Origin: Candidatus Uhrbacteria bacterium CG10_big_fil_rev_8_21_14_0_10_50_16
Lineage (GTDB): Bacteria > Patescibacteriota > Patescibacteriia > UBA9934 > UBA11717
NCBI GenBank assembly: GCA_002774875.1
Contig: PCYM01000002.1
Location: 14,781 to 78,780, forward strand
Direction: 5' to 3'
DNA length: 64,000 bases
A program made the translations under genes and the position numbers. This document shows, piece by piece, positions 4,465-64,000 of this stretch. Every line of letters starts with the position of its first letter. Position 1 is the stretch's first letter. The notes under the pieces were generated by a model that searched no databases, was not told where the DNA came from, and was given only the letters and a program-made list of their open reading frames with translations.

Positions 4465-4600
4465 AAATAATAGTGATTCAAGTATAGCACCTCCCTCTTG
4501 ACAAAACGTCCACAGTGTCGTAGGTTATCCTCTCGCCTTGAGCGAGAAAAAACGGACACATCATCCTTAGAAATAAGGATCAACTGCGAGGAGGATCGAG

Positions 4601-6259
4601 ATGAACGTAGGACGGCTTTTGATGGCCTGTCTGCTGGTGGTGGCCATGAGCGCCTCCGCTTTCGGACAGGATTCGCTCACTCTGGTGCTCGTGGGTCAGC
4701 CGCGAGAGCCGCAGATGGTGCCCAAGGTCGTGAAGGCCTTTACCCGCGCAACGGGTGGTGGCGTGACGCCCACGTCCGCTGAGACCGCTCTGCCCAACCG
4801 GCAGGTGATGGAAGCTTGTGTGGACACGAACGCAGACTCCGTCTGTGAGAACATGGGCGTCAACACGCTCTACCGTCAGCCGGGCAACCTTCTGCTGGTG
4901 AGCGGTGCGGACCCCGAGTTTCACCCGTGCACGGATCGTGGATCCTACACCGCCATGGAGGCAGAGGACCAGTTCGTCGCCAACAGTCGTGGTGCGAGCA
5001 TCATCGATCAGATGGATGCACTCGCGTACGGAAAGGCTGCAACGGCGCTAATGACGCTCGGAGAGGTTAGCCTCCCTTGCCTCAACGAACGGTTGGAGGA
5101 AGAAACGTTCTGGCGGTATAACTTCGTGGCTGGGTATCTGGCCTACGAGACTGCCAACAACCACTCCGCCGGCATCGATGCCGCGCGGCCGTTCTTTCTG
5201 AACGCCCTCCACACATCTCCGGGTCACACCTGGGACGCCGACTACCCGCCGGCGGCACAGACCGCCTATGCCGAGGCCAAGGTGGCCCTGGTGAAGGAGG
5301 AAATAGGGGAGGTGAACCACGACGCCATGCGAGTGGTGACCCTCGGGGCGTTCGACGCTCTGACGGTAGACACCCAATCCTACGCCGAGGGGATGCACCT
5401 GCACCCCGGCCTGCACCTGCTCCAGTGGAAGTTCCAGGGTATGGAGTACACGCGTGTGTTCAGCGTCCCTGAGGGCGGCGTTGACCAGGTCCTTCTGCTC
5501 GTGGATGGCGCGAGCTGGGCGCAGGCCTTGCTCACCTTCCCCGAACAGCGCTCCCAGGCGCAACGTCTGGTGGTGGCCACAACTCTCAGCCTCATGACCC
5601 GCAACGGTCAGCGGTCGATGGGTGTCGTGGATCTTGCGCAGGACCCTCCACTGGGGCTTCTGTACAAAGCGGATGGCGAAGGCGTGCCACTCCCCGTGGA
5701 TCTGCCGACCTACACCGCCGCTGTAGAGGAGGGCGATGATGATGACGGTCCGGTCCGCCGGCCTCACGTGGAACCGTTCCAGACGGTGGACACCACGCCG
5801 GGTCAACTGGCGCTGGTGGCAGGCGGTGGGTTCAAGGGCTTCGGCCCGGCCACCTACGCCAGCGTCCACCTGGCGCTCGATGCCCACATCCGCAACGGCT
5901 TCGGCGTGGCCATTCAGGGCAACCTGGGGCTCACGTCCGTCTCCCTCCCGGATGGCACCAATGTCCTCGGAGACCTGGTCTCCCTAGGGCTGGGTGTGTG
6001 GTACCGGTTCTGGTCGCCGGTGGGGGTTCGCCCTCTCCTGCTACTAGATCTACTGCTGGACATCAACAGCTACGGCGTCAGTGCCCCCATCCCGCTCCCC
6101 TCCCTCACGGGCGGCGGCGGCGTGGAGGTGCTCCTGCCCGACTCCCGCTTCCGCGTCCGATTCGTCGGCTACGTGGGTGGTGGGTGGGATGGCACCACGA
6201 GTCGACCGCGCTACGGAGCCACGTCGGCTCTGGTGATGGAGCTGCGCCCGGCTCCCTAG
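4601..6259 (+). CDS. High-GC secreted hypothetical protein (552 aa, signal peptide, Cys-rich N-half, Gly-rich beta-like C-half)
   Basis: ORF track; GAGGAGG SD 7 nt upstream of ATG; GC ~65% with GC3 near saturation against ~48% flanks; shadow ORFs on other frames. Confidence 0.6.
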   Translation: MNVGRLLMACLLVVAMSASAFGQDSLTLVLVGQPREPQMVPKVVKAFTRATGGGVTPTSAETALPNRQVMEACVDTNADSVCENMGVNTLYRQPGNLLLVSGADPEFHPCTDRGSYTAMEAEDQFVANSRGASIIDQMDALAYGKAATALMTLGEVSLPCLNERLEEETFWRYNFVAGYLAYETANNHSAGIDAARPFFLNALHTSPGHTWDADYPPAAQTAYAEAKVALVKEEIGEVNHDAMRVVTLGAFDALTVDTQSYAEGMHLHPGLHLLQWKFQGMEYTRVFSVPEGGVDQVLLLVDGASWAQALLTFPEQRSQAQRLVVATTLSLMTRNGQRSMGVVDLAQDPPLGLLYKADGEGVPLPVDLPTYTAAVEEGDDDDGPVRRPHVEPFQTVDTTPGQLALVAGGGFKGFGPATYASVHLALDAHIRNGFGVAIQGNLGLTSVSLPDGTNVLGDLVSLGLGVWYRFWSPVGVRPLLLLDLLLDINSYGVSAPIPLPSLTGGGGVEVLLPDSRFRVRFVGYVGGGWDGTTSRPRYGATSALVMELRPAP

Positions 6260-6620
6260 GCTCTTGGAGCCCCTGACGACGCCCGTTCTGCATCCCCACC
6301 AATCTCGGTGGTCTGCAGAGCGGGTCGTTATTTTTTACACTATTCCTTGTTACGGGTTAACGGAACGCCCATTTTGGGCTAGTCTCCACGTGTTATCTAC
6401 AACCGAGCTGCCTATCTGCAGCTCAACACCCAGGATGAGTTCCTGTGTCACAGAATATTGTTCTGCCTGCTCTGCAAGCACAAGCTCATGCAGACGCGCG
6501 TCTTGATAAAGCTGGACACTATCCCGACACGTTCACCTGGATCGGCGACCCCGCTCCACCCCAGGATCTTCTTCGGAAGTCTCCCAGAGACGGTACTTAT
6601 TTTCACAAAATAAAAAACTC

Positions 6621-8072: not shown

Positions 8073-8255
8073 TGCCTACAATATAGCCTAAACTGTTACG
8101 AAAGTCACAGCATGGCATAAAAATCTACCAAAGCACTGACCCCGTTGTCAGCGAGCTTTGGTAGGTCGTATGTCGAAAGGCATGCGTTGGGAGTAATCCC
8201 ACGAGCTGGCAGCGGGTTTTGTGCTGTCCGCTCGAATAAATCCTACCAAAGCGCT

Positions 8256-9971: not shown

Positions 9972-10162
9972 ATGGTATTGCTCCTCTTACAGGCAAATGC
10001 AATGCCAGAGCGCGGAGAATATACGACATTCCACAGGGTCTGTCAATCCTATTCCGCGTATCCATTGACGAATCCACCCTGATTGCTATATTCGGCGTGG
10101 AGGAGCGTCATTTTAACGCACCAATAGTCATCTATACCGGTACGCCGGTAAAGGGAGGTAAC

Positions 10163-11686
10163 GTGACCAACCTGGGCGATACGTTTGGACCGTTTCAGCT
10201 CCAACGCCTCCTGGGCGAAGGAGGCATGGCCAAGGTCTATCTCGCGATTCAGCGCGGGGCACAAGGGTTTGAGAAGTCTGTTGCGCTCAAAGTGATCGAC
10301 CAGCGCGTCACGGAAGACGACCGTTTTGTGAAGGCCCTCATCAACGAGGCGCGGCTAGGTGGTCAGCTCAAGCACCCCAACGTGGTGGAGATCTACGGGT
10401 TCGATCGCGTAGAAGGTCAGTACTACCTGGCCATGGAGCTGGTAGATGGATGGACGCTGGATCAGCTCCTCAAGCCAAACGGCAAGACGAGCACCCCGCT
10501 CCCCGTAACCATTGCATTGGAACTTCTGGTAGAGGTCTGTAAGGGTCTCGCCTATGTGCACGGTCTTGCGGACAAGCACGACACCCCCATGCACCTGGTG
10601 CACCGCGACATCAAGCCAGCCAACATCATCGTGAGCCGGGCAGGAGAGGTCAAGCTGCTCGACTTTGGTATCGCCAAGTCGGACACCAGTCTCTACAAGA
10701 CCACCAACGCCGATGTCACCAAGGGAACCCCTGTCTACATGTCACCGGAGCAGGTGCGAGGTGAGTCTTTGGACGGACGCAGTGACCTATTTGCACTCGG
10801 AATCATCCTGCACGAACTCCTATCGGGTGAGGTGTTGCTGGCAGTAGGAACTCTTCTCGAGATCCTGAATCGGGTTCTCCAGTGCGAGCAACCCATTGTG
10901 CAGAATCGATTCAACGTGCACTCTCCCGCCATCCAGACGATCCTGAGGAAGTGTGTTCGTGCCAACGTCGGCGATCGATTCGCAAGCGCACAGGACATGC
11001 AAACAGCGCTCAAGCAAGCAAGAGCTGAGTTGGACGGGCCCACGCTGGTGGAATGGATCAAGGGAATGGCACCGCAAGACAGCCATCAACCATCCCCTTC
11101 CCCAACTCCCACTCCGGGACCCACACGTCAACAACAGACGCCCAAGCTTGCAAGTCCGGCTGTACAACTGGCGCCCGTGGCAGCCCCCGAGCCTACCGTG
11201 CATGTCACGGTCCCGGCTCCGGTGCAACCGTCACACAGGGTATGGGTCGGTGGCTTGGCAATCGGCGTTCCTGTGCTGGTAGCGATCGCTCTCATCTGGC
11301 CACGAGAGCCAGTTGAGCTTACTGCATCACCTCAAGCGTCGCACGTCGCCTCGTCGACTTTGCCAGGTTTAGGGGTTCTTCCCAACTTGGCGGTAGAACC
11401 AGGCCCGGCGTCCACGTCCCCGCGAGCCACTCGGCAACAACCGAGCCCCGCGCCCGTGGAAACAGGTACAGGAACACTGGTTCTCAACAGCCGACCATGG
11501 TCGCGTGTAGATGTCGATGGACAGTCCGTTGGCGTGACTCCTGTTCACGGATTCATGGTCTCCGCGGGTAAACACACGCTCGTGTTTCACTGCGGCGCCT
11601 GTTTGGATCAACAGGTCCAGACGCAGACCGTCACGGTAACCGTGGCCAATGGCGAGACCGTATCGCTCACTTCCGTTCGATTCTAA
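10163..11686 (+). CDS. Hanks-type Ser/Thr protein kinase with Pro-rich linker, TM segment and C-terminal PEGA-like domain (high-GC)
   Basis: LGEGGMAKVY..ALKV, HRDIKPANI, DFGIAK, GTPVYMSPEQ kinase motifs; C-terminal LVLNSRPWSRVDVDG...VTP..G (PEGA-like); start set at GTG 10163 six nt after the perfect SD AGGGAGGT, where the GC jump also begins. Confidence 0.8.
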   Translation: MTNLGDTFGPFQLQRLLGEGGMAKVYLAIQRGAQGFEKSVALKVIDQRVTEDDRFVKALINEARLGGQLKHPNVVEIYGFDRVEGQYYLAMELVDGWTLDQLLKPNGKTSTPLPVTIALELLVEVCKGLAYVHGLADKHDTPMHLVHRDIKPANIIVSRAGEVKLLDFGIAKSDTSLYKTTNADVTKGTPVYMSPEQVRGESLDGRSDLFALGIILHELLSGEVLLAVGTLLEILNRVLQCEQPIVQNRFNVHSPAIQTILRKCVRANVGDRFASAQDMQTALKQARAELDGPTLVEWIKGMAPQDSHQPSPSPTPTPGPTRQQQTPKLASPAVQLAPVAAPEPTVHVTVPAPVQPSHRVWVGGLAIGVPVLVAIALIWPREPVELTASPQASHVASSTLPGLGVLPNLAVEPGPASTSPRATRQQPSPAPVETGTGTLVLNSRPWSRVDVDGQSVGVTPVHGFMVSAGKHTLVFHCGACLDQQVQTQTVTVTVANGETVSLTSVRF

Positions 11687-11794: not shown

Positions 11795-12424
11795 TCACTG
11801 TTGGCTCTTCTTGATTCGCTTGTTCGCGCTCATCGCCGCCGCCACCGGCTGGTAGAGCGAGGCTATGGGATTTTTGAGATCCTCTCGGGAGATGATCGTG
11901 CCAATCCCCCTGTGGATACCCAAACCCCAAAACGGCGTATTGAGCGCGACGAATTCCTTCTCACCCAGCACAAACTCCAGACGCTGCGCAACCCTCCGTG
12001 TCACTTCAAAATCCGCACCTGGTAATAAGACCACGAACTCATCTCCACCCACGCGCGCCGCCGCATCCAATGGGCGCAGAACGGACAAAGAGTCCGTGTC
12101 GCCCGTGTAGACGGCGCCCAGAACCTTCCCCACGTGCCGCAACACATGGTCTCCCGTGGGCTGACCGTACGTGTCATTGATCTGCTTGAACCCTTGGAGG
12201 TCTAAAAAGATCACGCTCAAAGGTTTTCGCTCTCGCATGCACGTCGCCGCCATACGCAACAAGGTCTCTTCCATTCCACGGAGGTTCATTAACCCCGTGA
12301 GGTAGTCGGTTCGCGACATCCGTCGCTCATCCAAGAGCTGAGTCTGCAGTTCCCGAACGCGCGCATGAAGCGCCGCAACCGCTTCCGGCGAACAGTCGTC
12401 CGGCGGTGGTAAAGATGATTTCAT
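11795..12424 (-). CDS. Diguanylate cyclase (GGDEF domain)
   Basis: RVGGDEF active-site motif and GLMNLRG region; AAGGAGG SD upstream of Met at 12424. Confidence 0.75.
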   Translation of the reverse strand: MKSSLPPPDDCSPEAVAALHARVRELQTQLLDERRMSRTDYLTGLMNLRGMEETLLRMAATCMRERKPLSVIFLDLQGFKQINDTYGQPTGDHVLRHVGKVLGAVYTGDTDSLSVLRPLDAAARVGGDEFVVLLPGADFEVTRRVAQRLEFVLGEKEFVALNTPFWGLGIHRGIGTIISREDLKNPIASLYQPVAAAMSANKRIKKSQQ

Positions 12425-12541: not shown

Positions 12542-12853
12542 TTAAAAATCCATCATCGTGTCAAGACTCGGCGCCTCCCCCGAATATAACCGCACGAGTT
12601 CTGGCACGTCCTCTACACGCACGTCTCCCAACCACACATTGTCTGGCATCACGACCACGGTGACGCCCGTGCTACATTGCCCCAAGCACCCGGTGCGACT
12701 TACACGAATATCAAACGCCGCCTCTGCAAATCCTAATTTAAGTGCGTCATACACCTCCTCTGCCCCTCGTTGCATGCAACACGCACGGCCGTCAGGTCTG
12801 TCATTGAGGCAGACAAGAATTAATTTTCTGTACACGCGTTCTGGGGTTTTCAT
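12542..12853 (-). CDS. (2Fe-2S) ferredoxin-like protein, thioredoxin-fold ferredoxin/NuoE-like family
   Basis: Four Cys in C...C...C..C-like spacing (LVCLNDRPDGRACCMQRG... GCLGQCSTG), 103 aa. Confidence 0.55.
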   Translation of the reverse strand: MKTPERVYRKLILVCLNDRPDGRACCMQRGAEEVYDALKLGFAEAAFDIRVSRTGCLGQCSTGVTVVVMPDNVWLGDVRVEDVPELVRLYSGEAPSLDTMMDF

Positions 12854-12955
12854 ACTTTGTTGTGAGTTCTAAGTTCTGTTGATTCTATCAGCTAAAAAAC
12901 GTGACCGCGGGACTCAAGGTGAGAATCCCGCGGCCTTCCACGTTGTTGTTGGCCC

Positions 12956-13165
12956 TCAGCGCATGCAGTCCGCCCGCGCTTGCACGTCCCTCGTCACTCC
13001 AACAGCCGCACGCCAAGCATGCGGATCCGCCCCGAGAAGCCCGTCGATCTCATCGCCGTTCGAGACTCTGGGACCTCGTCCCATCGTCACACCAGCGCGA
13101 TTCGGCGACGCCTCGCTATTCTGACCGTCTCCCTGCTGTCCCTCGCCCTGTCCCTGCGACTGCAT
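12956..13165 (-). CDS. Small high-GC hypothetical protein (69 aa, Gln/Gly-rich N-terminus) in a promoter-to-terminator cassette
   Basis: Minus-strand TTGACA-N17-TAGTAT promoter at ~13215-13245, GGAG SD, ORF, then terminator hairpin ggccgcggga...tcccgcggtc + T6 at 12893-12930. Confidence 0.35.
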   Translation of the reverse strand: MQSQGQGEGQQGDGQNSEASPNRAGVTMGRGPRVSNGDEIDGLLGADPHAWRAAVGVTRDVQARADCMR

Positions 13166-13279
13166 GACTCATCTCCGTGCTCTCATTTCGAGCTCGCAGA
13201 TACTATTCTCATTTTCTCCTTCTGTCAATCATCCACAGAGAAGTTAGAATCCCCGCCATAATTCCTATATACTGTACCT

Positions 13280-28388: not shown

Positions 28389-28464
28389 TCATGAACACCA
28401 CCGAAAGGTGGTGTTTTTGTTGTATTTACTGGCATTTTTTTTAAAAAAATAGGGCGCAATACCT

Positions 28465-28493
28465 TGACAAAACACCAAAATCGTGTTATAACG
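28465..28493 (+). promoter_or_regulatory. Sigma70-like promoter TTGACA-N17-TATAAC in AT-rich DNA driving a high-GC ORF
   Basis: Read directly. Confidence 0.5.
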
Positions 28494-28529: not shown

Positions 28530-28910
28530 ATGCAGAACGTGAACGTGACTGTTGCTGGCGAAATCACCACCCTCCCCTGGAAGGAGGCCCTCCACCTCCT
28601 CCTGGAGGTGACAGAGTCGAAGCTCGACTTCGGCGACGGAGTCGAGCTGTCCCGCATCGGACCCCTCTGGGGGATCCGATGGACCGGACAGCCGTCCGCC
28701 CACCCGGGCACGGTGGACACCGCGGACATCCGCGGTGTGACGGTTCAAATGCGCCGTCACGCGAGAGCCCTCCCCCAGGCGTTGGAGGGGCTCCTGCGGG
28801 GGTCCCACCGCCGGGTGAGCCTCATGTGGGGCAGCACCCGGCGGTATGCCGGGATGGCACTCGAGCTCGTCGTCGAGGACGACGAGCTCTACGCCACGAT
28901 CTCCGTCTGA
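28530..28910 (+). CDS. High-GC hypothetical protein (126 aa) in a self-contained cassette
   Basis: GGAGGA SD then ATG at 28530 (the track ORF starts earlier in AT-rich leader); GC3-saturated; followed by 9-bp perfect hairpin atgccccgc...gcggggcat. Confidence 0.5.
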   Translation: MQNVNVTVAGEITTLPWKEALHLLLEVTESKLDFGDGVELSRIGPLWGIRWTGQPSAHPGTVDTADIRGVTVQMRRHARALPQALEGLLRGSHRRVSLMWGSTRRYAGMALELVVEDDELYATISV

Positions 28911-40619: not shown

Positions 40620-41079
40620 CAAACCGCGACCTGCCAGGTGGGCGGATCGCGGTCACAAGATCTGGCGGATCGCGGGGCGCGGACGTCGGAGAACCGACGC
40701 CGCACCCCGCTCTCCGCGCTTCTCAGCCGTTCATGGTGCCCTCCTGTGGCCATGGCTGGTGAAGCTATTCTTCCAACAAAGTTAAGGTCTCTGTGAAGAC
40801 CTGTCCTTGTAGATGCGACGCCGAGGGGGCGTCGTGGTTGGAGTCGCGTGGTACGCGACTTCCGGCCGGGTCTTTCACCCGGCGGAGGGCTGTGGGGGGG
40901 GCTAGCCGCCGAACATGGCGTACCCCTTTCCAGGTTTGATGAACGCATGAGCGCGTTCAATCAAAACCATCTATACCACAATTTTGCGGCTTTGTCAAGC
41001 GTAAGAGGCGTGTTTGTTCGCCTGCGACGTACTAAATAATCTTAAATTTACTGTGAGTTGTCCGCCAAAAGCGTACAAA

Positions 41080-41126: not shown

Positions 41127-41155
41127 TTGACACAATGCCTCTTCCATGTTAATCT
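41127..41155 (+). promoter_or_regulatory. Sigma70-like promoter TTGACA-N17-TAATCT at the entrance of the high-GC island
   Basis: Read directly; no convincing ORF for the next ~1.1 kb. Confidence 0.5.
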
Positions 41156-42304
41156 GCTTTGTTCACTGATAGAGCACAACGCCTCAGTGATCCATGCATC
41201 TTACAAACAAACAGTGAAACAGGGCTTGTAACAACTACGTTGCAAGAACAAAGGACGATCGATATGGATCGTTCTCCTGGAATGTGCGTATGGCTGTAGG
41301 AAATTTCATGTAACGGCACTACAACGTACGGCAATCTGGATTAAAAAGGCTGGATCCATGGTCTACAACACCGTTTGAGACACATGTGTCCCCGCCACGC
41401 GGCCCCGCCGCGGATCTCTCGCTAGCACCACATAGACGCCATGCTATAGCTGGTAGCGGGAGATCCGCGGCAGAGGACGCAACCTGTCCAATCCGCACAA
41501 GAACTCTGTTGCCGGTGGGACGGCAAAACAGGGTGGGTGCTTGGCACACCCAGACCATCTGGTCAAAGATAACTCCTGGTAACAGGAGGAAACTCATGGC
41601 GGTAACACCATGGGGATGCGAAAGCATTCATAGCGCCACGCCTATCATGACGTATCCACGTTGGGTCGGGAGACCCCTCCAGGATCGGTACTGGAGTTGA
41701 TAGGTGCTTGCGGGTTGGAACCCTGCAAGAGTGAGTGCGGACAGTGGATTCTCCAATCCACGTTTGCACAGCAATGGTTTGGGCTACGCCCTCAACTGAT
41801 CGCAACCATTTTGTTACCGGCATCGCGCCCGAGTGGCGCGACCAATCAACCACCGGGTTGGTTTGCTGGGGCAATGGCGATCAGGTTGTATGCAAGGAAG
41901 GGCCTAACCGGTGAATCGTTCGTGTCAGTCATCTGCACGGCGATGATCCGGATAAAAAGGCGGATGGTTTGGGCGCCCCCCATTCCGTCCGCTCAACCAG
42001 GAGTCCCAGGCCGGCCAGCCAGGATTCTGAAGTTGAGAACTTGCATACTCCTAAGGCTGACACCCATCAGCCGACCGAATTCCATCGGGTTTTTCCGCTC
42101 AGACGGGCGGAAGACACACGGAAGGGTCAAAGACTGGTTGGCGGTCGCAACCGTCTCGCACAGCCTGAGAAGGCAACCAGCCGCGGGAGTAAGCACTTGC
42201 GTTACTTATTCCCACCTTATCTTCGCGCCCGAGCTTGCAATTCTGCTTGCTCGGACGCTCCACAAACTGCTTGAGTAACTCGAGCTGTTCGTGGAGGAGG
42301 AGCG

Positions 42305-42460
42305 ATGGCCATCACCCCCAGCTACGGAGTGGTGCGTCACGGCGCGGTCTGGTTTACCACCAGCCCGCAGCAGCTCAAGCGTGAGGCCCGTGAAAAGGCC
42401 GATCGCGAGCTGCAGGCGAAGCGACCTTGTGTCGTAATCCGCCGCCGCGCGCACCGGTAG
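42305..42460 (+). CDS. Small high-GC hypothetical protein (51 aa)
   Basis: GGAGGAGG SD immediately upstream of ATG; GC3-rich; below the track length cut-off. Confidence 0.35.
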   Translation: MAITPSYGVVRHGAVWFTTSPQQLKREAREKADRELQAKRPCVVIRRRAHR

Positions 42461-42681
42461 TCCTCATACGCTCGTGGGTCACACGAGCGTAAAAGGGTGC
42501 CGCAAACACCCTGCCCTAGCCAGGCAAAACCCCCGGGCTGCAGGTCCCATCTTGATTGAAAATTCCTGCACAACGTGGACCTGGGCACTGCTCGGGTCTT
42601 CCACAAAGGCGCGATCCTGTATGGCATTTTTGTGGAGGATACAACTCACTTACTGTTCTCGGAGGAGAACGAGGAGGTTCC

Positions 42682-42972
42682 ATGCGTCGATACACATTGT
42701 TCAGTAGCTGGCGTCGATCTGAGCTCGAGATCCCCTCCTCCGGGAGAAGGATCAAGAAGCTGGATAGGACGTTCGAGGTCGGCACCCCGCGGTACCTGAA
42801 GTGGCTCCGGCGCATGTTCCCCGATCAGGTTTACCTGGTCGTGGCGCAGGGAACCATGCCTCAAATGCTCGACCGCGTTCGCGCGCGGTTTGGACAGGAG
42901 GAGGTTCCCGGCGTGGTGTCTGCCACCGTTCAGCTTCAGCGGGACATCCGAGAAAACCCAAGTCTCTACTGA
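42682..42972 (+). CDS. Small high-GC hypothetical protein (96 aa, basic)
   Basis: GAGGAGG SD + ATG 42682 inside track ORF 42556..42972; preceded by a repeat-leader copy. Confidence 0.45.
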   Translation: MRRYTLFSSWRRSELEIPSSGRRIKKLDRTFEVGTPRYLKWLRRMFPDQVYLVVAQGTMPQMLDRVRARFGQEEVPGVVSATVQLQRDIRENPSLY

Positions 42973-42990
42973 AAGGAGGTGCTTCCGTGG

Positions 42991-43055
42991 CCTGAGGAGA
43001 ATCGCTTCTTGGGCCCTGCATAGAGTCTTTGCAAAACGAAGGTTCTATGGAGGAA
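42991..43055 (+). repeat. Repeated ~65-70-nt leader module (copy R1) with conserved 11-bp stem-loop ending in the SD
   Basis: GCCTGAGGAGAATCGCTTCTTGGGCCCTGCATAGAGTCTTTGCAAAACGAAGGTTCTATGGAGG is ~80% identical to the copy at 43711-43790; compensatory base changes keep the CAUAGAGUCYU/ARGRUUNUAUG stem. Confidence 0.55.
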
Positions 43056-43293
43056 AGGAAGTGTCAAATACCCCAGGTGGTATTGACGGCACTTCTGGCG
43101 CCTCACGACCATGTGCTCTCACCAGCACAAATTGGTCACAAAAGAGACGAACAGCAATGCGTCGCGGCTGCCAGTAGGAGGTATACGTACGAGGCCTGAG
43201 AAGATTCACTTCTCGGGCACTCTACAGAATTCTAGGCAGAAAAGGATTCTGAGAGTTAATCAATGTACGCAACAAGAGATTGGGAGGTGTGCG

Positions 43294-43569
43294 ATGAACA
43301 AGCTCAATGTGGTTGAGATAGGTCTTCGTAATGGCAAGGGTCTGAGCTTCACCTGCGGCAAGCTCTATGTCCGCATTACGGTAGACGGCCTCACGCTGCG
43401 CGTTGAGACCAACCTGCCGGTGCGGGCCAAGGAGCTGGCCGAGTCCGAGACGACCCCCGTTCGCCGGTCCGTGTTTGACCGCGCCGATGAGCTGCGCCGA
43501 GGAGGACGGCACAGCGACGTGGACGTGGCGGCAACAGGAGGGCGGCGGGTGATCCGACGCAGAACGTAA
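43294..43569 (+). CDS. Small high-GC hypothetical protein (92 aa)
   Basis: GGGAGG SD + ATG 43294 inside track ORF 43111..43569; preceded by a partial leader-module copy at 43194-43238. Confidence 0.45.
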   Translation: MNKLNVVEIGLRNGKGLSFTCGKLYVRITVDGLTLRVETNLPVRAKELAESETTPVRRSVFDRADELRRGGRHSDVDVAATGGRRVIRRRT

Positions 43570-43710
43570 ACCCCAGCCCGCGATCGGAACACGCGGCAAA
43601 GGCTGTTCCACCCCTCGCCCTCGCGAGCAGACCCCTTGCGTTTGAGCCACGCAATCGGGTCCCGTCCAGAACGGGGTAAGCCATCGCTCCGGGCGGTCAC
43701 GCGCCCCCTT

Positions 43711-43790
43711 GCCTGAGGTCAACTGATTCTCGGGCACTGCATAGAGTCCTTGCTGCACGAGGATTGTATGGAGTCTACAACTTTTGGAGG
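43711..43790 (+). repeat. Repeated leader module (copy R2) abutting the ATG of the 189-aa gene
   Basis: GCCTGAGGTCAACTGATTCTCGGGCACTGCATAGAGTCCTTGCTGCACGAGGATTGTATGGAGTCTACAACTTTTGGAGGTCACC then ATG. Confidence 0.55.
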
Positions 43791-43795
43791 TCACC

Positions 43796-44362
43796 ATGCG
43801 CCTGTTCGGACTTTCTGACTGTTACGATGCGATGGATCTGTACGTCTGCATCAACGGCAAGCACGTGCTCCTGTCCCGGTCGGAGGGGTGGGTGTCTGCC
43901 CGTGTGAAGCCGTGTGACAAGAGCTGTGTTCCCACGGAGATTGATCTGGAGGTGTGGCTGCAGAAGGCACCGCGGAAGGTCCGCAAGGATCCTCGGCTGC
44001 TCGCGTTCGTGGAGCAAGGAGTGCCCGCGTACACGGTGCACCGTTCCTTCGCCAAGCGCTCCGGCGGCAGCGAGACGGTCTGGATCGGCAACCTGGCGAT
44101 CACGTGGAGCTTTTGCGACGCGTCGCGGTTGAGCCAGCGGGACCGGTGGCGAGACCGCTTTGAGATCTGCCCCATCGGGGAGAATGATCTGCTGTGGTGG
44201 ATCCGCGACGTCCTCCCGTCCTCAAGACGGCTCGAAGACGTTGCCGAGGAGATCCGTCGCAATGACGATCTGCTCCTGAGCGAGCTCCGGCAGCGCGGCA
44301 CTCCGGACGCAAACACCCTGGACGCGGATGCCTTCCGGCAGTTTCTCTTGAACCTGCTGTAA
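43796..44362 (+). CDS. High-GC hypothetical protein (189 aa)
   Basis: Start at MRLFGLSD with GGAGG SD supplied by the leader module; terminator gccaaaatccc...gggatttggc+T7 at ~44400-44460. Confidence 0.5.
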   Translation: MRLFGLSDCYDAMDLYVCINGKHVLLSRSEGWVSARVKPCDKSCVPTEIDLEVWLQKAPRKVRKDPRLLAFVEQGVPAYTVHRSFAKRSGGSETVWIGNLAITWSFCDASRLSQRDRWRDRFEICPIGENDLLWWIRDVLPSSRRLEDVAEEIRRNDDLLLSELRQRGTPDANTLDADAFRQFLLNLL

Positions 44363-44592
44363 GAAGACGATCGTGCTCCCCAGCTCCCCGGTTCTCGGGT
44401 TGAGCCAAAATCCCTACGTCAATCCCATCTGTTCTTCTGGTGGGATTTGGCTTTTTTTGCTACATTTCTATTTAATTTTCATCGCCCAACAAACCTAGGG
44501 CGGCGGCATTTATTTATAAACAATACGACCTGAGACTTGATTATCTTATTTTTCTTTTAGGCTAAAATTAGCCATTTTTCCATGGTCACCTC

Positions 44593-44621
44593 TTGACAAA
44601 AGGTGTTTTTTATGGTATAAG
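44593..44621 (+). promoter_or_regulatory. Sigma70-like promoter TTGACA-N17-TATAAG in AT-rich spacer driving the next high-GC ORF
   Basis: Read directly. Confidence 0.5.
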
Positions 44622-44761
44622 ATTGTTACGCCAAAGGTGGAATAGGTTCACCTAACGCGCAGACGATCCGGAACGCTGATTCATACAGCATTCTGAAAGA
44701 CGATAACGGATCGGTCTCGTGCAAGCGAGATACCTATGAACGGGGCTTACCACCCCACGGA

Positions 44762-45460
44762 GTGATGATGGAAAAGGAAACCAACGTCATGGTGCGCCTC
44801 CCGGCGCGAGAATGGGAAATCCTCATCAAGGAGGTCCTCGCCGCAGAGGCAGATCTCCCCTCGTGGGAGTGGTGCAGAACAAGCGGAGCCCCCCGCGAGG
44901 AGGAGGGGCGGCGGCGCGATGCCGCCAGGACCGCTCTGAGGGTGGCCATGGGTCGCTCACCGGCCAACGAGAGGATGGAGGACCGTCTGGCCAACAAGGC
45001 CGGGTGCGTCCTCCTCGTGGACGGCCGGTTTGAGATCGGGGGCTCCGTTGGGGAGCGCAAGCTCCTGATCAACGGCCGAATCCGGGCCACCCTCCGCCTG
45101 GGGGGCCGTCTGGACGGCCGCGTGGATGTCGTCACCCGGGAGGCGGCCGAGGCCGCCTACCAGGAGCGACGACAGGCCTCCCGCCACGCCGAGGCCGCCT
45201 ACAAGGCGGCCCGGCAGGAGCTCATCCACGAGCTCCTGCAGGCGGACCTGGCCGAGCCCGCCGACTTCGGTCGGTGGACATACGCCTACGGGCAGTTCGG
45301 TGGGTATTTCTACCGAACGGGGGTGAGCGGCCCCCGCGTCGCCGCCAACTCCGCCTTCGTGGCGGCGTTCGGCCGCGACTGGAGGAAGACCGCCAACGAT
45401 CGGCGTTGCGAGAAGATCGAGCTCGAGCTCGATCGTCGGCTCTACGGCGCCCGCTACTAG
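44762..45460 (+). CDS. High-GC hypothetical protein (232 aa, Arg/Ala/Glu-rich)
   Basis: GGAG SD then ATGATG; GC3-saturated; followed by a terminator-like hairpin + T-run at ~45517-45575. Confidence 0.5.
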   Translation: MMMEKETNVMVRLPAREWEILIKEVLAAEADLPSWEWCRTSGAPREEEGRRRDAARTALRVAMGRSPANERMEDRLANKAGCVLLVDGRFEIGGSVGERKLLINGRIRATLRLGGRLDGRVDVVTREAAEAAYQERRQASRHAEAAYKAARQELIHELLQADLAEPADFGRWTYAYGQFGGYFYRTGVSGPRVAANSAFVAAFGRDWRKTANDRRCEKIELELDRRLYGARY

Positions 45461-45950
45461 CCCCCCAAAAAAATCCTGAGCAAGCAGGAACCCTTCGGAG
45501 CACATGTCTTGCTACATGTCTCCACCTACGCCCCGAACCACCCCCGTGCAAAATCACGGTCTGGAGGTCCGGGGTTTTGCGTTTTAAAATAGCTGTCTCT
45601 CTTAAACACCCGCATTTTTTTAACATGTTTTCCTGCGTGAGGAGATGCGACGGGTGAAGAAGATGAGATACATCTGACCGCCCAACCAAGAACCGACCCC
45701 CATCGATACGTCGATGAAGGGCGACGTCACTCGGTGGGCGGTTCTTGTTTTTGTTCGTCTCGCAGTAAACATCATTGATACGCCAGGCGAATATTTGAGA
45801 GGATAGTGATATAGGTTGAGTATTTCTACCAGGTGATCACTAATGACTTATGCCGTAGAATTATCCTCTACATCTCGATAAGCACGCATTGCCCTTTTTT
45901 CAGTACTTTGCTAAGTTACATACATGAGTAAGTAGATTTTATTTCCCCAA

Positions 45951-46757: not shown

Positions 46758-46794
46758 TAGCAGCTCACAACCGTTATCAAGGGACTATTAATCT

Positions 46795-50112: not shown

Positions 50113-50168
50113 TGGCATATGCTCTCCCACCCTGCAACGAAAAACACCCCTTTCGGGGTGCCTTTCGT

Positions 50169-50244
50169 TGGAGCGGGTAGAGGGAATCGAACCCTCATCT
50201 CAAGCTTGGAAGGCTCGCATAATAAGCCACTATACTATACCCGC
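50169..50244 (-). tRNA. tRNA-Gly (anticodon UCC)
   Basis: Reverse complement GCGGGTATAGTATAGTGGCTTATTATGCGAGCCTTCCAAGCTTGAGATGAGGGTTCGATTCCCTCTACCCGCTCCA; anticodon loop CTTCCAA; T-arm GAGGG-TTCGATT-CCCTC. Confidence 0.75.
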
Positions 50245-50475
50245 ATATTGTTTAATGTACCTTCTTCCCTCTCCCGACTTCAGCCACTTTTCTCGAATGC
50301 GACCTACTATAAAGTCAGGATGAGTTTCCGTTAGAATAACACGGAACGGCCGTTTGTGTTTTGTTGATCGATTTCTTCCGGAATTGTGCTCACTTAATCG
50401 TCGATCAAGATCTTTACACATTCCTATGTACAGAGTCCCATCAAATTCACTCACCAGCGCATAGACAGTTATCAT
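50230..50475 (-). CDS. GIY-YIG nuclease-domain protein, YhbQ/UPF0213-like (81 aa)
   Basis: ITVYALVSEFDGTLYIGMCKDLDRRLSEHNSG matches the GIY-(x10)-YIG...R...H.xG core; its last 15 nt overlap the 5' end of tRNA-Gly. Confidence 0.65.
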   Translation of the reverse strand: MITVYALVSEFDGTLYIGMCKDLDRRLSEHNSGRNRSTKHKRPFRVILTETHPDFIVGRIREKWLKSGEGRRYIKQYAGIV

Positions 50476-50508
50476 AGCTCGGATTTTGTTTTCGTAGATG
50501 TAAATCCC

Positions 50509-50587
50509 CGAACCCTCATCTCAAGCTTGGAAGCCTGCCTGCCGGCAGGCAGGGCTCGCATAATAAGCCACTATACTATACCCGCAT
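50509..50587 (-). repeat. Partial duplicate of tRNA-Gly (positions ~1-57) with a 20-nt palindromic insertion CCTGCCTGCCGGCAGGCAGG at the anticodon loop; T-arm/acceptor 3' half missing
   Basis: 59 nt identical to the intact tRNA gene at 50180-50244 apart from the insertion at 50534-50553. Confidence 0.7.
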
Positions 50588-50712
50588 GTTCTTTTTCGTA
50601 GGCAACTATAACAAATAGGTCATTTTTTTGCAAGAGTTGATCCAGTTGGCCTTACTATTCATTGTTCTTATGAGGTAACTCATCGTAGAGAGCCATTTTG
50701 CCAATCCCTCAT

Positions 50713-51156
50713 AAAAAAGTGAAACGGCAGCCTCGGATGGCCGCCGTTCACGTACGTTGACATAGATTTGGGCTTTTTACACCCTACCCGCTTGAGTAAC
50801 CAGGACCTCGCACGCCCTTTCCGATGGTCACCTAGCGTCTGCAATACCCTAAGCGCGTTTCATACAAAAGTCGCGCGCTCCACAGGTCTCTCCGTACGTG
50901 GCTGACCAACCAACGTACCCCGTGTGGACTAACTACCGCAGGTGCTTTCTCACCTCAAATGATCCTCTTTGTCCAAGGTCGGTAGTTCTTTCACCTTCAG
51001 CGCGGCGCGAGCCGTGCGCGGAAGGTGTGGTCGAAGATGTCGAGTGGGGGGGTGTAGGCGTTTGCGGAGAGAGCTTCCGCTGCCTACATACATAGATTCA
51101 TACTGTCCTCCTTCCGTTCGACCTAACCTTTATACCCTAAAATACCATTTTGTCAA
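50713..51156 (-). ncRNA. Candidate ~410-nt non-coding transcript bounded by a TTGACA-N16-TATAAA promoter (51129-51156, minus) and a 14-bp hairpin + U6 terminator (50713-50751, minus)
   Basis: No ORF with SD in either strand; strong promoter and terminator on the same strand; identity (tmRNA/RNase P/SRP/other) not established. Confidence 0.4.
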
Positions 51157-53048: not shown

Positions 53049-53900
53049 TTACTGATTCCAAACGCGTTCGCACGACATGTGTCGTTTACCGATAATCTCG
53101 TTGCCGGACGTATCCGTCGCCGGTGAGTCTACACACGTCTCTACCATATCCGTTGCCTGTGTAGCACTATCCAGGATGTAGTAGCTCCACCAAACATTTC
53201 TCATGTCTCCACGACTTGTTCCCACGACGGTTTGATGAGGAAGGAAGTCACCTAAAAAGTACCCATCCTCCATAACACCACTGAGCGGTTGATAACGAAT
53301 AAATATATTTCCGTTCCACATCATCGGATGGCCATATCCTTCTCCGTTTTTGACAAAGGCATAAACCTCCGTACCAAACTTACAAAGTTGAATCTGATTA
53401 CCGTTCAGGTTGTTAGCCGTTTTTACGATTTTTTGTGTGAAGACCGCATCATTGATTCTAGGCACATAGTTGTTTTGTGCAACATCCGCTATTGTAAACG
53501 GTAGACCGTAAGATGAGACAGAAGATGTTTCACACGTTCGCGCCTGTTCGAACATGCCAGCCACAAGCTTTTGCATCGCCGTTTTATATCCCTGACCCGT
53601 CTGTGCGTCAACATCATACGTAATATCAAGCCCTGTTGCCGACAACTCTCCCAATCCAGGGAGTGTACTGTCGGATTCCGTAGACCCTTCTTCCACGATA
53701 TCCGATGCGACCTCGTTTGTTGCATCTGATTCTTCCGATCGCGGATTCGAGGATGTGACAACGACATCTGAGGAATCCGATTGGTGAACACCAAACCAGA
53801 TGGCCGCACCCGTCGCACTAAGCGCAAGCACAATGAGAATAATCACCAAGTACCACGGTGCGCCATGCGATGCTGATGTTGGGGGTGTAAATGATTCCAT
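53049..53900 (-). CDS. Membrane-anchored hypothetical protein (N-terminal TM, extracytoplasmic domain)
   Basis: ORF track; WYLVIILIVLALSATGAAIWF TM helix; terminator hairpin at 53005-53045. Confidence 0.5.
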   Translation of the reverse strand: MESFTPPTSASHGAPWYLVIILIVLALSATGAAIWFGVHQSDSSDVVVTSSNPRSEESDATNEVASDIVEEGSTESDSTLPGLGELSATGLDITYDVDAQTGQGYKTAMQKLVAGMFEQARTCETSSVSSYGLPFTIADVAQNNYVPRINDAVFTQKIVKTANNLNGNQIQLCKFGTEVYAFVKNGEGYGHPMMWNGNIFIRYQPLSGVMEDGYFLGDFLPHQTVVGTSRGDMRNVWWSYYILDSATQATDMVETCVDSPATDTSGNEIIGKRHMSCERVWNQ

Positions 53901-61470: not shown

Positions 61471-61504
61471 CAAAAAACCTGTTTTCAACAAGGGAAAACA
61501 GCTG
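61471..61504 (-). promoter_or_regulatory. Leader attenuator/terminator upstream of rpoB (ctgttttc-ccttgttg-gaaaacag + GTTTTTTG)
   Basis: Perfect 8-bp stem followed by U-run on the minus strand, ~80 nt before the rpoB start; minus-strand TTGACA-N17-TAGTAT promoter at ~61676-61705. Confidence 0.45.
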
Positions 61505-61767
61505 TTACTTGCCTAATATTGGTGCAGCGACGCTGAATATCCGTTTCGCCACGAAAGCGGATAGAGCGTTTAGCATGGGGATGAAACTCACTGAATGGGG
61601 GTTAGGATTTAGTGAGTTTTGACCTGAGTCCGCTCGGATCAGCAGACCAAGACAGATCCGTCAAGAGCGTTGCAATACTATAGCGAAAAGACACATTTGT
61701 CAAACATGAGCAAGTATTCTGTCAAGAACAATCAATATTTAGCTAATACTAGGCGAATAACTATACC

Positions 61768-61797
61768 TTGACAAAATCTGCTTTTTCTGGTACATTC
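61768..61797 (+). promoter_or_regulatory. Sigma70-like promoter TTGACA-N17-TACATT heading a ~390-nt structured leader into the last high-GC gene
   Basis: Read directly; leader contains several perfect short hairpins. Confidence 0.45.
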
Positions 61798-62185
61798 GGC
61801 CGTTCATTAAAACCTGTATAACATTAGATTGAAGGAGGAAGAGGAGCGTTGGAAACCGGCTAGATTCGTTTAGCATGGCGACAGTGTTCTTGAGTCATCT
61901 ATCGGTGAAACTGGGTCTCACTCACTCTCTCCGAACAGATGCCTCGCGAATGTAGATTACCTTGGTAAACCTACATTCATCCCCTTCAATCTGCTGTGAT
62001 ACAGCAGGCGTTTCCCGCTTCACCCCAGAAACCTGTCGTTTTTGGCGATTTTCTGTGTTGAGGTGGGAGAACGAGCGTTCTTTCCATATTTAGCCTGCAA
62101 CCCCGTGGTGGGGAAGTTGGCTTTTTTGATACGTCGCCGCGTGTACGGCACGTTTTGCGGCAATGCCGTGGAAGAGGAGAGGGAG

Positions 62186-64000
62186 ATGAGCAAGACCATG
62201 CCGATCCGCCTGCGCCTGGCGGACAACGAGGAGGTCAGCGAGGAGATGCCCACCGGGCTCTCGTTCGGGGACATCCGGACCCTCGGGTTGCTGGAGGTCG
62301 CCGAGATCGGAACGCGCCTCGCGCTCCCCTCGGGGATCGAGGTAGTCCGGACAGAGTCCGGCCTGGGGTTCATCACCAAGACCGCGCCCGTGAGCACGGC
62401 CGCCCCGGCTCCCAAGGCCGAGGTGGTCCAGACCGCGCGCCCGGCGGCCAAGGAGCCGAGGGTGACCGCCCAGGTGGCGGACATCTTCGGCGGATCCGTC
62501 GCCGTCCCCTCGGGGCGGCTGGCGGTGGACGCCTCCGTCCCCGTCCCGGCACCCAAGGCCGAGGTGGTCCAGACCGCGACCGCGCCCCCGGCGGCCAAGA
62601 TCGAGATCAAGACGGGCTCCGCCCAGGTGGCGGACATCGTCGAGGACGAGGCCCGCTTGGAACGGGAGAAGAAGGCCGCCGCACACGCGGCCAACCTCGC
62701 GGCCCGGGCCGCGATCATCCCCGGACTGGTCGTCGCCCTCGTGGCGCTGGCCAAGGAGTTCCTCAAGGAGGGCGGCCACATGGCCGGCATCTTCCTGGAG
62801 GAGGCCTACGTCAAGTCCGGCCCCTTTGCCACCCGCGTGGTGGCCGAGGGGATCGAGACCATCGAGAACTCGGTCGTCATGGACGGCCGCGCCATCCTGA
62901 ACGCCCTCCGGGCGCTCAACTCCAACCACCCCCTCCGGGGGATGGTGGACGCGATGGTCCTGCACGGCCCCCATGCCGTGCACTACGATCGGATCTTGAT
63001 CAACCGGAACCCCAAGGGGAAGGTCTGGATCCTCCCCTTGTGGGCGCCAGTGGCCTCGGCCGTCACCGACCGGCTCAGGAACGAGCTGGTGGGCGTCGCC
63101 CGCTACACGAAGCTCAAGAATGAGCTTCGCCGCCGCCTCTCGGGCGGCGCCGTGGTCAAGGGCGGGCGGAAGATCGCCCGCCACCCCAACGGGGGCGTGG
63201 ACTGGGACAGGCTCCACGACAAGTTCGAGGGAAAGGAATCCCTCGAGGGCCGCAAGGTGGCTTGGGGCCACATTGCCCTCATCGGCGACTGGGCCTTCTG
63301 CCTGGACGCCACCGACTACGACAAGACGACGGTGGTCGCCGTCGCCGCGGAGCTCACGGACGAGGGCCGCAAGGAAGAACAGGCCAAGGTGCTCCAGGAC
63401 ATCAACTGGGCCAACCGGTCCGTGAACGGGGTCAAGTTGATCCCCTTCAACACCCGGCAGACCCCCGAGGGGGCCTACCGGGTGGACCGGATCCTGAAGC
63501 AGGACGGCACCTGCCCGATCAGCGGGCAGGAGATCCCCCAGCAGAAGGGGGGCGCCTTCCACTTCCTGGTCTACGCCCCCCGTGGTGGGAGTGATCCCGC
63601 CCAACTGGTGGAGGAAATGGGCTACGTCCCCCTCCGCCCCTGGGTGGGCTACGCCCTCCTGGAGGACCTCTCCATCCTCCCCACCGACTGGGAAGTGTGG
63701 CAGAGGTGGGAGATCGTGACGCGGTTCTCCGCCACGGTCTCGTTCGTGGCGGACAAGAGCATCAAGCTCGAGCCCGCCTCACCTCGCAAGAGCAAGGGGA
63801 GCGTCTCCCTGAGCTCCCGCAAGCTCAAGGAGGAGCGCTCCGACGCCGATGCCAGGAAGGCGCTCGGCGGGGGCAAGAAGAAGAAGGGCGGGGGGTCCAA
63901 GAAGACCACCCGCCGGCTCCGAGCACGGACTCCAATGTCGGTCACCGACCGCCTGATCGAGTCCTGGGAGCACAAGTCGCCCGAGGAGTTCGGGATCATG
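62186..64000 (+). CDS. Large high-GC hypothetical protein (at least 605 aa; 3' end beyond window) with tandem ~45-aa PAPKAEVVQTA...AQVADI repeats and Lys/Gly-rich segment
   Basis: Frame-2 ORF translated by hand with no stop from ATG 62186 (GGAGAGGGAG SD) to 64000; absent from the track (no stop in window); track ORFs 62155..63123(+), 62090..63604(-) are its shadows. Confidence 0.6.
   Translation, partial: MSKTMPIRLRLADNEEVSEEMPTGLSFGDIRTLGLLEVAEIGTRLALPSGIEVVRTESGLGFITKTAPVSTAAPAPKAEVVQTARPAAKEPRVTAQVADIFGGSVAVPSGRLAVDASVPVPAPKAEVVQTATAPPAAKIEIKTGSAQVADIVEDEARLEREKKAAAHAANLAARAAIIPGLVVALVALAKEFLKEGGHMAGIFLEEAYVKSGPFATRVVAEGIETIENSVVMDGRAILNALRALNSNHPLRGMVDAMVLHGPHAVHYDRILINRNPKGKVWILPLWAPVASAVTDRLRNELVGVARYTKLKNELRRRLSGGAVVKGGRKIARHPNGGVDWDRLHDKFEGKESLEGRKVAWGHIALIGDWAFCLDATDYDKTTVVAVAAELTDEGRKEEQAKVLQDINWANRSVNGVKLIPFNTRQTPEGAYRVDRILKQDGTCPISGQEIPQQKGGAFHFLVYAPRGGSDPAQLVEEMGYVPLRPWVGYALLEDLSILPTDWEVWQRWEIVTRFSATVSFVADKSIKLEPASPRKSKGSVSLSSRKLKEERSDADARKALGGGKKKKGGGSKKTTRRLRARTPMSVTDRLIESWEHKSPEEFGIM

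Follow-up and report, generated by a model that had tools for sequence, protein, structure and literature searches.

The described systems closest to the locus reported here are genomic islands and phage morons. Genomic islands are said, in the model of Lawrence and Ochman, to undergo compositional amelioration, and acquired DNA is more often AT-richer than the recipient genome; morons, as described by Hendrix and colleagues, are reportedly autonomous units of promoter, open reading frame (ORF) and terminator, of deviant composition, that lie inside prophages. The locus is a 64,000-nt stretch from Candidatus Uhrbacteria bacterium CG10_big_fil_rev_8_21_14_0_10_50_16 (contig PCYM01000002.1, positions 14,781 to 78,780, with COV06 locus tags; hereafter the window), in which genes rich in G+C (GC) lie in patches called islands 1 to 5: I1 in island 1, a kinase and a GGDEF gene in island 2, I3, I4a and I4b, and I5. 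Like genomic islands, these are blocks of atypical composition and codon usage with non-housekeeping cargo, some beside tRNAs, and I1 and the kinase show signs of foreign (diderm) ancestry; unlike them, they are syntenic across four lineages, undecayed despite saturation of silent sites, GC-richer, bounded by coding sequences (CDS) and devoid of mobility genes. Of the marks of a genomic island we found the atypical composition; we found no mobility genes or attachment sites, no donor homologue and no compositional decay, and the corresponding sites in relatives are occupied, I1, the kinase and GGDEF being present in a sister species and in two further lineages (L038 and L040), and islands 4 and 5 in the sister, where, of the genes in islands 1, 2, 4 and 5, only I4b is absent at its position. 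The likeness to morons lies in single-ORF units with their own promoter and terminator, set between unrelated genes and deviant in composition; the difference is that there is no prophage and no PHROG match, that the neighbours are rpoB, TsaD and tRNAs, and that several units are ancient and syntenic.

On balance we favour the view that the islands are a long-resident, lineage-restricted and persistently GC-rich gene class in this Uhrbacteria clade and not fresh insertions. As judged from sequence comparison, a block of I1 and the kinase, perhaps with GGDEF, was probably captured long ago from a high-GC, Myxococcota-like diderm, before the four lineages (window, sister, L038, L040) split. Its silent sites would then have turned over completely, yet would have stayed G/C through a gene-specific equilibrium, with a fixation bias toward G/C acting on these coding sequences; islands 4 and 5 have, in addition, been swapped recently between the sister species by recombination of 1-4 kb tracts.

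Composition, synteny and age of the GC-rich genes

The window has 50.8% GC overall, and a sliding profile of GC and of GC at third codon positions (GC3) confirms the sharply bounded GC-rich patches that a sequence-only reading of this DNA had noticed: host genes have GC 0.46-0.54 and GC3 0.42-0.58, against a GC3 of 0.65-0.94 in island CDS (I1 0.78, kinase 0.65, GGDEF 0.69, I3 0.87, I4a 0.81, I4b 0.86, I5 0.94). The 62-68% GC given in that reading holds for several segments but not for island 2, which has only 57-59%, and its description of GC3 as near saturation fits I5 but not the other island genes (0.65-0.87). The high-GC segments are:

4551-6400: 63.4% GC
10151-11600: 59.0% GC
12901-13200: 64% GC
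28501-29000: 64.4% GC
40551-41000: 58% GC
41351-43000: 58.5% GC
43301-44450: 62.3% GC
44701-45550: 67.1% GC
62051-63950: 68.1% GC

In 60-nt bins, the upward step in GC lies at the start codon, and the drop comes no more than 60-120 nt past the stop, at the terminator hairpin; the same bins reveal no GC-rich ends in the genes flanking the islands, and the intergenic DNA of the window is AT-rich. Codon usage in the islands resembles that of a high-GC (65-70%) organism: AAA makes up 1% of Lys codons versus 48% in host genes, ATC 91% versus 32% of Ile codons, and CTC plus CTG 87% versus 32% of Leu codons. Every codon position is shifted, and the proteins contain more Ala, Gly, Arg and Pro. Within one cell, neighbouring genes are 0.3-0.45 apart in GC3, which offers a clean natural comparison for the study of GC-favouring forces. 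The genes that bear on the age of the islands, with their signals, are:

4498..4526, plus strand: I1 promoter TTGACA-N17-TAGGTT, by direct reading
4601..6259, plus strand: I1, 552-aa secreted protein, GC 0.65, GC3 0.78, with syntenic homologues
6277..6336, plus strand: I1 intrinsic terminator, stem 6307-6329 followed by a T-run
10065..10092, plus strand: kinase promoter TTGACG-16-TATATT with extended TG, by consensus scan
10163..11686, plus strand: Hanks-type Ser/Thr kinase with a weak PEGA-like C-terminus, GC 0.59, GC3 0.65
11795..12424, minus strand: GGDEF diguanylate-cyclase domain protein, 209 aa, GC3 0.69, terminator 11789-11755

I1, the kinase and GGDEF occupy the same syntenic slots in the four lineages, the gene order at the L038/L039 and L040 loci being PilB-RsmE-TsaE-TsaD-Na/Ca exchanger-(I1)-kinase-GGDEF-small ORFs-HSP20-VanW. 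In L038 I1 directly adjoins the kinase, which indicates that islands 1 and 2 derive from one formerly continuous block. Another NCBI Uhrbacteria genome has a 480-aa relative of I1. The promoter is conserved as well: TTGACA-N17 followed by TAGGTT, TAGTCT or TAAGTT precedes the homologues in L038, L040 and L042, and the leader hairpin and terminator are also kept. The same slots and the same promoter type in four diverged lineages contradict a recent date for the import suggested in the sequence-only reading. The GC3 values across these lineages are:

I1: window 0.78, sister 0.80, L038 0.91, L040 0.86
Kinase: window 0.65, sister 0.67, L038 0.75, L040 0.73
GGDEF: window 0.69, sister 0.75, L038 0.78, L040 0.71
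Neighbouring genes: 0.45-0.67 across lineages

Lineage comparisons here cover two to four lineages, and a synonymous divergence (dS) >1 is treated as saturated. Island proteins are 30-45% identical between lineages, versus 69-85% for their neighbours. At four-fold degenerate sites of conserved residues in I1, the three comparisons with L040 give a fraction of 0.61-0.67 differing versus a random expectation of 0.64-0.66; the same sites have A at 0.05-0.08 and T at 0.10-0.14, so that about 80-85% are G/C. A relic decaying under the host process would be expected, by an estimate from the saturation bound, to retain a four-fold GC of at most about 0.58-0.65. Because the silent sites of I1 are saturated and nevertheless G/C, its composition is the stationary state of the process acting on that gene and not a decaying relic, which contradicts the reading of the composition as a leftover of transfer. 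By these site counts the high G+C of I1 is an actively maintained, gene-specific equilibrium, a case that is strong for I1 and weaker for the kinase and GGDEF. A midway reading, in which GC3 drops with age by amelioration, was dropped on the deep-lineage GC3 and saturation data.

GC3-outlier genes may be widespread across Uhrbacteria and Patescibacteria, other members of which carry their own, unrelated outlier ORFs near rpoB, with GC3 of 0.83-0.96 against medians of 0.32-0.64:

L079, 5469-7586: 705 aa, GC3 0.83
L061, 8948-9607: outlier ORF
L048, 6651-7031: outlier ORF
L063, 2433-3800: outlier ORF
L088, 580-1074: outlier ORF

Over rpoB and rpoC the sister species has about 83% nucleotide identity to the window; for the rpoC protein the identity is >90%. 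Values of dS between window and sister, calculated by the Nei-Gojobori method, are:

Host genes: rpoB 1.13, rpoC 1.33, yebC 1.44
Host genes: Na/Ca exchanger 1.66, TsaD 2.15, TrmB 3.5
Island genes: I5 0.107, I4a 0.072, 91-aa ORF 0.071, I1 0.72
Island genes, saturated: kinase about 2 (60% aa identity), GGDEF about 1.8 (54% aa identity)

By the measure of silent divergence, islands 4 and 5 have been exchanged recently between the two species. The near-identical tract of I5 spans promoter to terminator, with flanks that are 70-85% identical or unalignable. The SBF transporter gene (38877-39812, GC3 0.51), in the stretch 37700-39900, has a dS of 0.118 beside TrmB (39858-40619) at 3.5, so exchange is not special to GC-rich genes, and 50163-50748 is also about 95% identical to the sister. 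The recent tracts in islands 4 and 5 and in SBF indicate that the species swap 1-4 kb tracts in a mosaic.

Proposed maintaining force and rival explanations

More tentatively, a force confined to particular CDS may hold secreted and signalling genes at GC3 0.8-0.95 beyond silent-site saturation. Our leading guess for it, put forward with reserve, is that selection favours A/U-poor codons in the translated mRNA; we lean to it slightly because the GC step is bounded by the CDS, all codon positions are shifted, AAA is nearly gone and the leader of I5 has about 50% GC. Such selection could confer resistance to ribosome-dependent mRNA interferases of A-rich codons or to other RNases, in which case codon usage would define a regulon. 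Close behind as an alternative force comes an unusually strong GC-biased gene conversion, acting at accessory genes prone to recombination. A link between recombination and GC3 is documented in bacteria, where gene classes differ only slightly (Lassalle et al. 2015, PMC4450053). The present locus resembles those cases in that its most GC-rich genes, I4 and I5, have recently recombined, and differs in that the GC3 gap is 0.2-0.45, the exchanged tracts show no GC enrichment outside coding sequence and SBF is not GC-rich. Island genes having orthologues for comparison evolve fast, yet fast protein evolution alone does not give the effect, since the gene hyp283 is fast and has a GC3 of 0.46; nor does one recent recombination event, given the GC3 of SBF after exchange. 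If a maintaining force does operate, high GC would be no guide to recent transfer in these genomes, and compositional methods for detecting horizontal gene transfer, which take atypical GC as a sign of recent arrival that disappears over time, would mislabel old residents as fresh imports.

Several points weigh against a long-maintained composition and the forces proposed for it. The four-fold GC of the kinase and GGDEF, about 0.65-0.7, lies near the upper bound left by slow decay, which makes the saturation case borderline for these two genes. A polarised count of strong-to-weak versus weak-to-strong substitutions in I1 gives 38:2, a count that is uninterpretable because the outgroup is saturated and GC-rich (91% G/C) and so affords no power. 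The L040 kinase falls outside the other Uhrbacteria kinases in the tree and could be a replacement rather than a product of vertical descent. Selection at the mRNA level is a guess from the composition pattern alone. As for gene conversion, the I5 leader and the promoters within exchanged tracts are not GC-rich, though they may be constrained to be AT-rich; the exchanged SBF gene has host-like GC3; and the effect is far above the reported bacterial cases. Finally, it is possible that I3, I4a, I4b and I5 are recent imports from an unsampled donor.

Recent horizontal import from a high-GC donor, such as the host of an epibiont, with slow drift to host composition, agrees with the codon usage, typical of a 65-70% GC organism, with the affinities of I1 and the kinase outside the Candidate Phyla Radiation (CPR), and with a GC3 that tracks recency (I5 0.94 and I4a 0.81 at dS of about 0.1, I1 0.78 at 0.7, kinase and GGDEF 0.65-0.69 at saturation); it would also suit I3, I4a, I4b and I5, for which no relatives were detected beyond the two species, and the tRNA neighbours, I3 abutting tRNA-Pro and island 2 lying beside tRNA-Glu. 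We nevertheless hold it improbable for the islands at large, and for I1 it is refuted, since four lineages share I1, the kinase and GGDEF as GC-rich genes in conserved order, with the silent sites of I1 saturated, and decay at the host rate should have brought four-fold GC to about 0.58-0.65 or less and not 0.80-0.85. The promoter wiring is equally old, the flanking genes lack GC-rich ends, Pfam, PHROG and NCBIfam scans of the island ORFs found no integrase, transposase or phage family, no repeats flank I3 or island 2 at the tRNA genes, and no island protein has a donor-like match above about 57% identity. A related and, in our estimate, still slightly less probable idea is that the islands are hot spots overwritten repeatedly by homologous recombination from GC-rich relatives or donors, their GC being refreshed by import. 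Tracts of 1-4 kb exchanged between species are indeed common here (I4, I5, SBF and 50.16-50.75 kb), Uhrbacteria loci span 38% to 64% GC and members with 58-64% GC exist, the low identity of island proteins between lineages beside better-conserved neighbours fits, the L040 kinase is an outlier in its tree, and the transfers reported for Patescibacteria stay mostly within the phylum (PMC12455944). If homologous recombination relied on the flanks, however, donor flank should have come along, whereas the GC step ends at start and stop codons; no closer I1 allele was found among 1.8 billion representative proteins, and the kinases of the window, sister and L038 are monophyletic.

Two further explanations carry much less weight. 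A GC-rich mutational equilibrium, visible only in weakly constrained fast genes while codon selection holds housekeeping genes at about 50%, would fit the fast evolution of the island proteins and the rise in GC at all three codon positions; it is very unlikely in view of hyp283 (53049-53900), which is fast (63% aa identity, nonsynonymous divergence dN 0.28) and not GC-rich, of an orphan gene at 725-1993 with GC3 0.46, and of the AT-rich intergenic DNA. An assembly chimera, binning contamination or deliberate engineering, the last of which the sequence-only reading had raised, might be suspected from the sharp composition edges and the tidy promoter-ORF-terminator units, which may look artificial. 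We give it practically no credence: contigs in JGI, ENA, Logan and NCBI assemblies, independent and from different data sets, match the window at 100% identity over the island junctions, islands 1, 2, 4 and 5 occupy the same loci in the sister, and the genes recur in the same places in two more distant lineages. Junctions so reproduced mean that the islands are not an artefact, and both chimerism and engineered insertion are ruled out.

Proteins and transcription units of the islands

I1 consists of a signal peptide, an N-terminal part of helices and beta structure, and a C-terminal OmpA-like barrel of eight strands. A full HMMER profile search gave 25 I1 relatives among the 1.8 billion proteins, and an AlphaFold2 model from a 25-sequence alignment (mean predicted local distance difference test, pLDDT, 84.9) places the eight strands in residues 403-548. 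Foldseek matches this barrel to OmpA, NspA, OprF, Ail, OmpX and OmpW (probability 1.0; TM-scores, normalised to the target, 0.6-0.77); profile searches of I1 (and of I5) against PDB sequences gave chance-level matches only. The C-terminus is thus confidently predicted, from the model, to be an outer-membrane barrel of the OmpA/OmpX type. Relatives outside CPR are only remote, at about 22% identity; they have signal peptides and C-termini ending in GVGFRF or GLGLQF, the Phe signal of diderm outer-membrane proteins, many are rich in Gly, Ala, Arg and Pro, and one adjoins succinate dehydrogenase and aldehyde dehydrogenase genes, a non-CPR context. The window protein ends in ELRPAP, without a C-terminal aromatic beta-signal, which the Uhrbacteria copies have lost. 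I1 thus shares with the OmpA/OmpX/OmpW/NspA family the antiparallel eight-stranded barrel, the signal peptide and, in remote relatives, the terminal Phe, and differs from it in the fusion to an N-terminal part of about 380 residues and in the lost aromatic signal. No outer membrane is known from the phylum to which Uhrbacteria belong.

The kinase matches Pkinase (PF00069) with E = 2.8e-43 and 148.6 bits against a cut-off of 31.7. Of the eukaryotic-like kinase with PEGA described in the sequence-only reading, the kinase therefore stands, whereas PEGA (PF08308, E = 0.005, 17.0 bits) falls below its cut-off of 20.8; several kinase homologues do carry PEGA. The best matches outside Uhrbacteria have 50-57% identity over the kinase domain only, and every named one (n=6) is from Myxococcota or Deltaproteobacteria. 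In a neighbour-joining tree, built on mostly unnamed metagenomic proteins, the kinases of window, sister and L038 cluster in a single clade beside a large group of top-scoring homologues, with 55% identity in the kinase domain. A high-GC foreign origin is thus borne out to the extent that at least I1 and the kinase look non-CPR in ancestry, but that origin would be old and diderm-type; an actinobacterial donor, the example given earlier, is unsupported by every search, no island protein having a match in that direction. The OmpA-like barrel and the Myxococcota-type kinase point to old capture of genes from diderm neighbours or hosts by CPR bacteria, and both are plausible host-interaction genes.

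GGDEF is confirmed as island cargo, with 89.5 bits for PF00990 and 95.6 bits for TIGR00254, both above cut-off. The ferredoxin that had been counted as cargo has host-like composition and does not belong with it. The other features of island 2 are:

12542-12853: ferredoxin-like gene, GC3 0.56 here and 0.43 in the sister
12956..13165, minus strand: s69, a 69-aa GC-rich ORF, GC 0.66, promoter 13228-13200, terminator 12935-12903, with a gene call in L001

TTGACA-N17-TAxxxT promoters and GGAGG ribosome-binding sites are read directly before I1, I3, I4b and I5, and a consensus scan adds the promoters of the kinase (10065-10092) and s69 (13228-13200) and terminators after I1, GGDEF and s69. The motif CTTGACAAAA with at most one mismatch occurs 19 times versus 6.0 expected, and a promoter of the CTTGACAAAA type also lies upstream of a gene of host GC at 676, which marks the TTGACA-type promoter as the host's own. 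These motifs support a reading in which the GC-rich ORFs are transcribed as units of their own, from promoters of host type and with their own ribosome-binding sites and terminators. Their earlier description as complete expression cassettes holds for most of them but not for GGDEF, for which no canonical promoter was found, the nearest TTGACA sitting in the loop of the upstream terminator. The units of islands 3 and 5 and of the right end of island 4 are:

28464..28492, plus strand: I3 promoter TTGACA-N17-TATAAC, directly after tRNA-Pro (28312-28388)
28530..28910, plus strand: I3, 126-aa protein without family match, GC 0.67, GC3 0.87, terminator about 28921-28962
44593..45460, plus strand: I4b cassette, promoter TTGACA-N17-TATAAG at 44593-44621, leader of about 140 nt
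44765-45460, plus strand: I4b CDS, 231 aa, GC 0.69, GC3 0.86
61768-61796, plus strand: I5 promoter TTGACA-N17-TACATT, by direct reading
61800-62185, plus strand: I5 leader, about 390 nt, about 50% GC, with two terminator-like hairpins before the start codon
62186..64000, continuing to 64108 beyond the window, plus strand: I5 CDS, 640 aa, GC 0.69, GC3 0.94

Searches of Pfam, NCBIfam, PHROG and PDB sequences gave no match for I3, I4a, I4b, I5 or the small ORFs, and a word-indexed protein search detected no relatives of I3, I4a, I4b or I5 beyond the window and the sister. Since the same kind of search returned only the sister I1 and overlooked a 43%-identical homologue (E = 1e-140) that HMMER found, the orphan status of these four is provisional. 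A tblastn search with I5 and the other orphan proteins gave no homologues in 80 rpoB loci from GTDB genomes, and phage records gave no match. I5 is, as had been proposed, a repeat protein: it has two repeats of about 47 aa and a Lys-rich tail. An AlphaFold2 model of it from a 2-sequence alignment was unusable (pLDDT 32), and an alignment scan of viral contigs gave no match. ORFs antisense to I5 (504 aa; 663 aa in some sister assemblies) were dismissed as by-products, codon-position GC fitting the plus-strand frame. The I5 leader, >90% conserved between the species and with a folding z-score (z) of -5.75, looks like an attenuator or riboregulator of no Rfam family.

Ahead of rpoB (minus strand), a block of >100 nt at 61500-61700 hardly varies between the species, within spacer that is poorly conserved, and is probably a leader element of rpoB.

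Predicted structured RNA in island 4 and minor features

The left part of island 4 does not fit a gene island: no credible ORF was found in 40.6-42.3 kb, and predicted folding there is strong. Of the five gene islands described in the sequence-only reading, then, part of the fourth is predicted structured non-coding RNA and the ferredoxin of the second is host-like. The features of island 4 up to I4b are:

40625..40962, minus strand: candidate structured small RNA, about 335 nt, promoter TTGACA..TATAGA at 40997-40965, terminator at its 3' end
41128..42300, plus strand: promoter at 41128, then a highly structured segment of about 1.1 kb upstream of the small-ORF operon
42305..44458, plus strand: operon of small GC-rich ORFs, terminator 44404-44458, 94-98% identical to the sister
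42305-42460, plus strand: ORF, 51 aa
42682-42972, plus strand: ORF, 96 aa
43047-43199, plus strand: ORF, 50 aa
43294-43569, plus strand: ORF, 91 aa
43796-44362, plus strand: I4a, 188 aa
42985-43052, 43189-43256 and 43706-43773, plus strand: three copies of D1, a 68-nt hairpin element, before ORFs

The candidate small RNA has a z of -7.5 and is about 96% identical to the sister, promoter included. Over 40.6-42.6 kb, 200-nt windows have z of mostly -3 to -8.5 on at least one strand, with one near 41.2 kb at about -1.6, where the same sliding calculation gives 0 to -5 for the 16S gene and about 0 for rpoB; the region is 94-98% identical to the sister, whose rpoB and rpoC are about 83% identical. 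Substitutions relative to the sister avoid the predicted plus-strand stems (27/57 fall in stems, with 66% of positions paired), 17 of the 27 stem substitutions keep the pair, and four pairs are changed on both sides. From these folding predictions and about 60 substitutions between two near-identical species, the left half of island 4 is predicted to be structured non-coding RNA, and its moderate GC excess fits folding. The segment at 41128-42300 would be either a long leader of the small-ORF operon or a large non-coding RNA. It resembles the GOLLD, ROOL, OLE and LOOT RNAs as a kilobase-scale candidate with no convincing ORF, its own promoter, predicted folding above that of 16S and stronger conservation than the neighbouring protein genes, and differs from them in lacking an Rfam family match and in being possibly an operon leader: Rfam gave no match at gathering score for 40.6-42.6 kb or the I5 leader, and permissive matches (E up to 1-5) in 40.3-46 and 61.5-62.3 kb were noise. 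This hyper-structured segment of about 2 kb with no convincing ORF, from a lineage without cultured members, is a candidate for a new large RNA. Part of I4b (45100-45400) and the most conserved stretch of I5 (62800-63800) also fold strongly, with z of -3.5 to -6.8 on both strands; I1 has no such region.

In the sister, the middle D1 copy is doubled: a 76-nt copy (L125 7915-7990 and 9402-9477) flanks an extra 1.49-kb module, absent from the window, that includes a receiver-domain-like ORF. D1 thus marks gain and loss of modules. The hairpin element, which stands three times before ORFs and flanks a module in the sister, may or may not correspond to the imperfect hairpin recombination sites of an integron cassette array; no IntI-type integrase domain was found among the ORFs of 40-46 kb, and the upstream gene encodes a TrmB-type regulator. 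In viral contigs the D1 core motif had 22 single matches, all by chance and without extended similarity, and a second motif had 0. Metagenome scans with the I4a alignment and with TrmB gave no matches, and a SAVED-like PADLOC match for I4a (E = 0.0026) was too weak to be credited, PHROGs and PADLOC being otherwise empty. That island 4 and I5 came from a phage or plasmid was rejected after negative blastn and tblastn searches of phage and plasmid collections.

A 5.7-kb stretch between island 4 and tRNA-Gly (44422-50162, with I4b, a hydrolase, a Mur ligase and Ddl) is absent at that site in the sister, which indicates a rearrangement. The 3' part of the tRNA-Gly gene (50169-50244) is duplicated about 320 nt away (50188-50253 and 50509-50594), and the copies bracket a small GIY-YIG endonuclease ORF at about 50230-50475 on the minus strand; this arrangement is read as the trace left by a small element that inserted at the tRNA. 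Elsewhere in the window, Rfam identifies a LOOT RNA at 8085-8202 (78 bits), a T-box leader at 29011-29253 (96.8 bits) and a complete 16S rRNA gene (24185-25665). No 23S gene accompanies the latter within the 64 kb, which means that the rRNA genes are unlinked.

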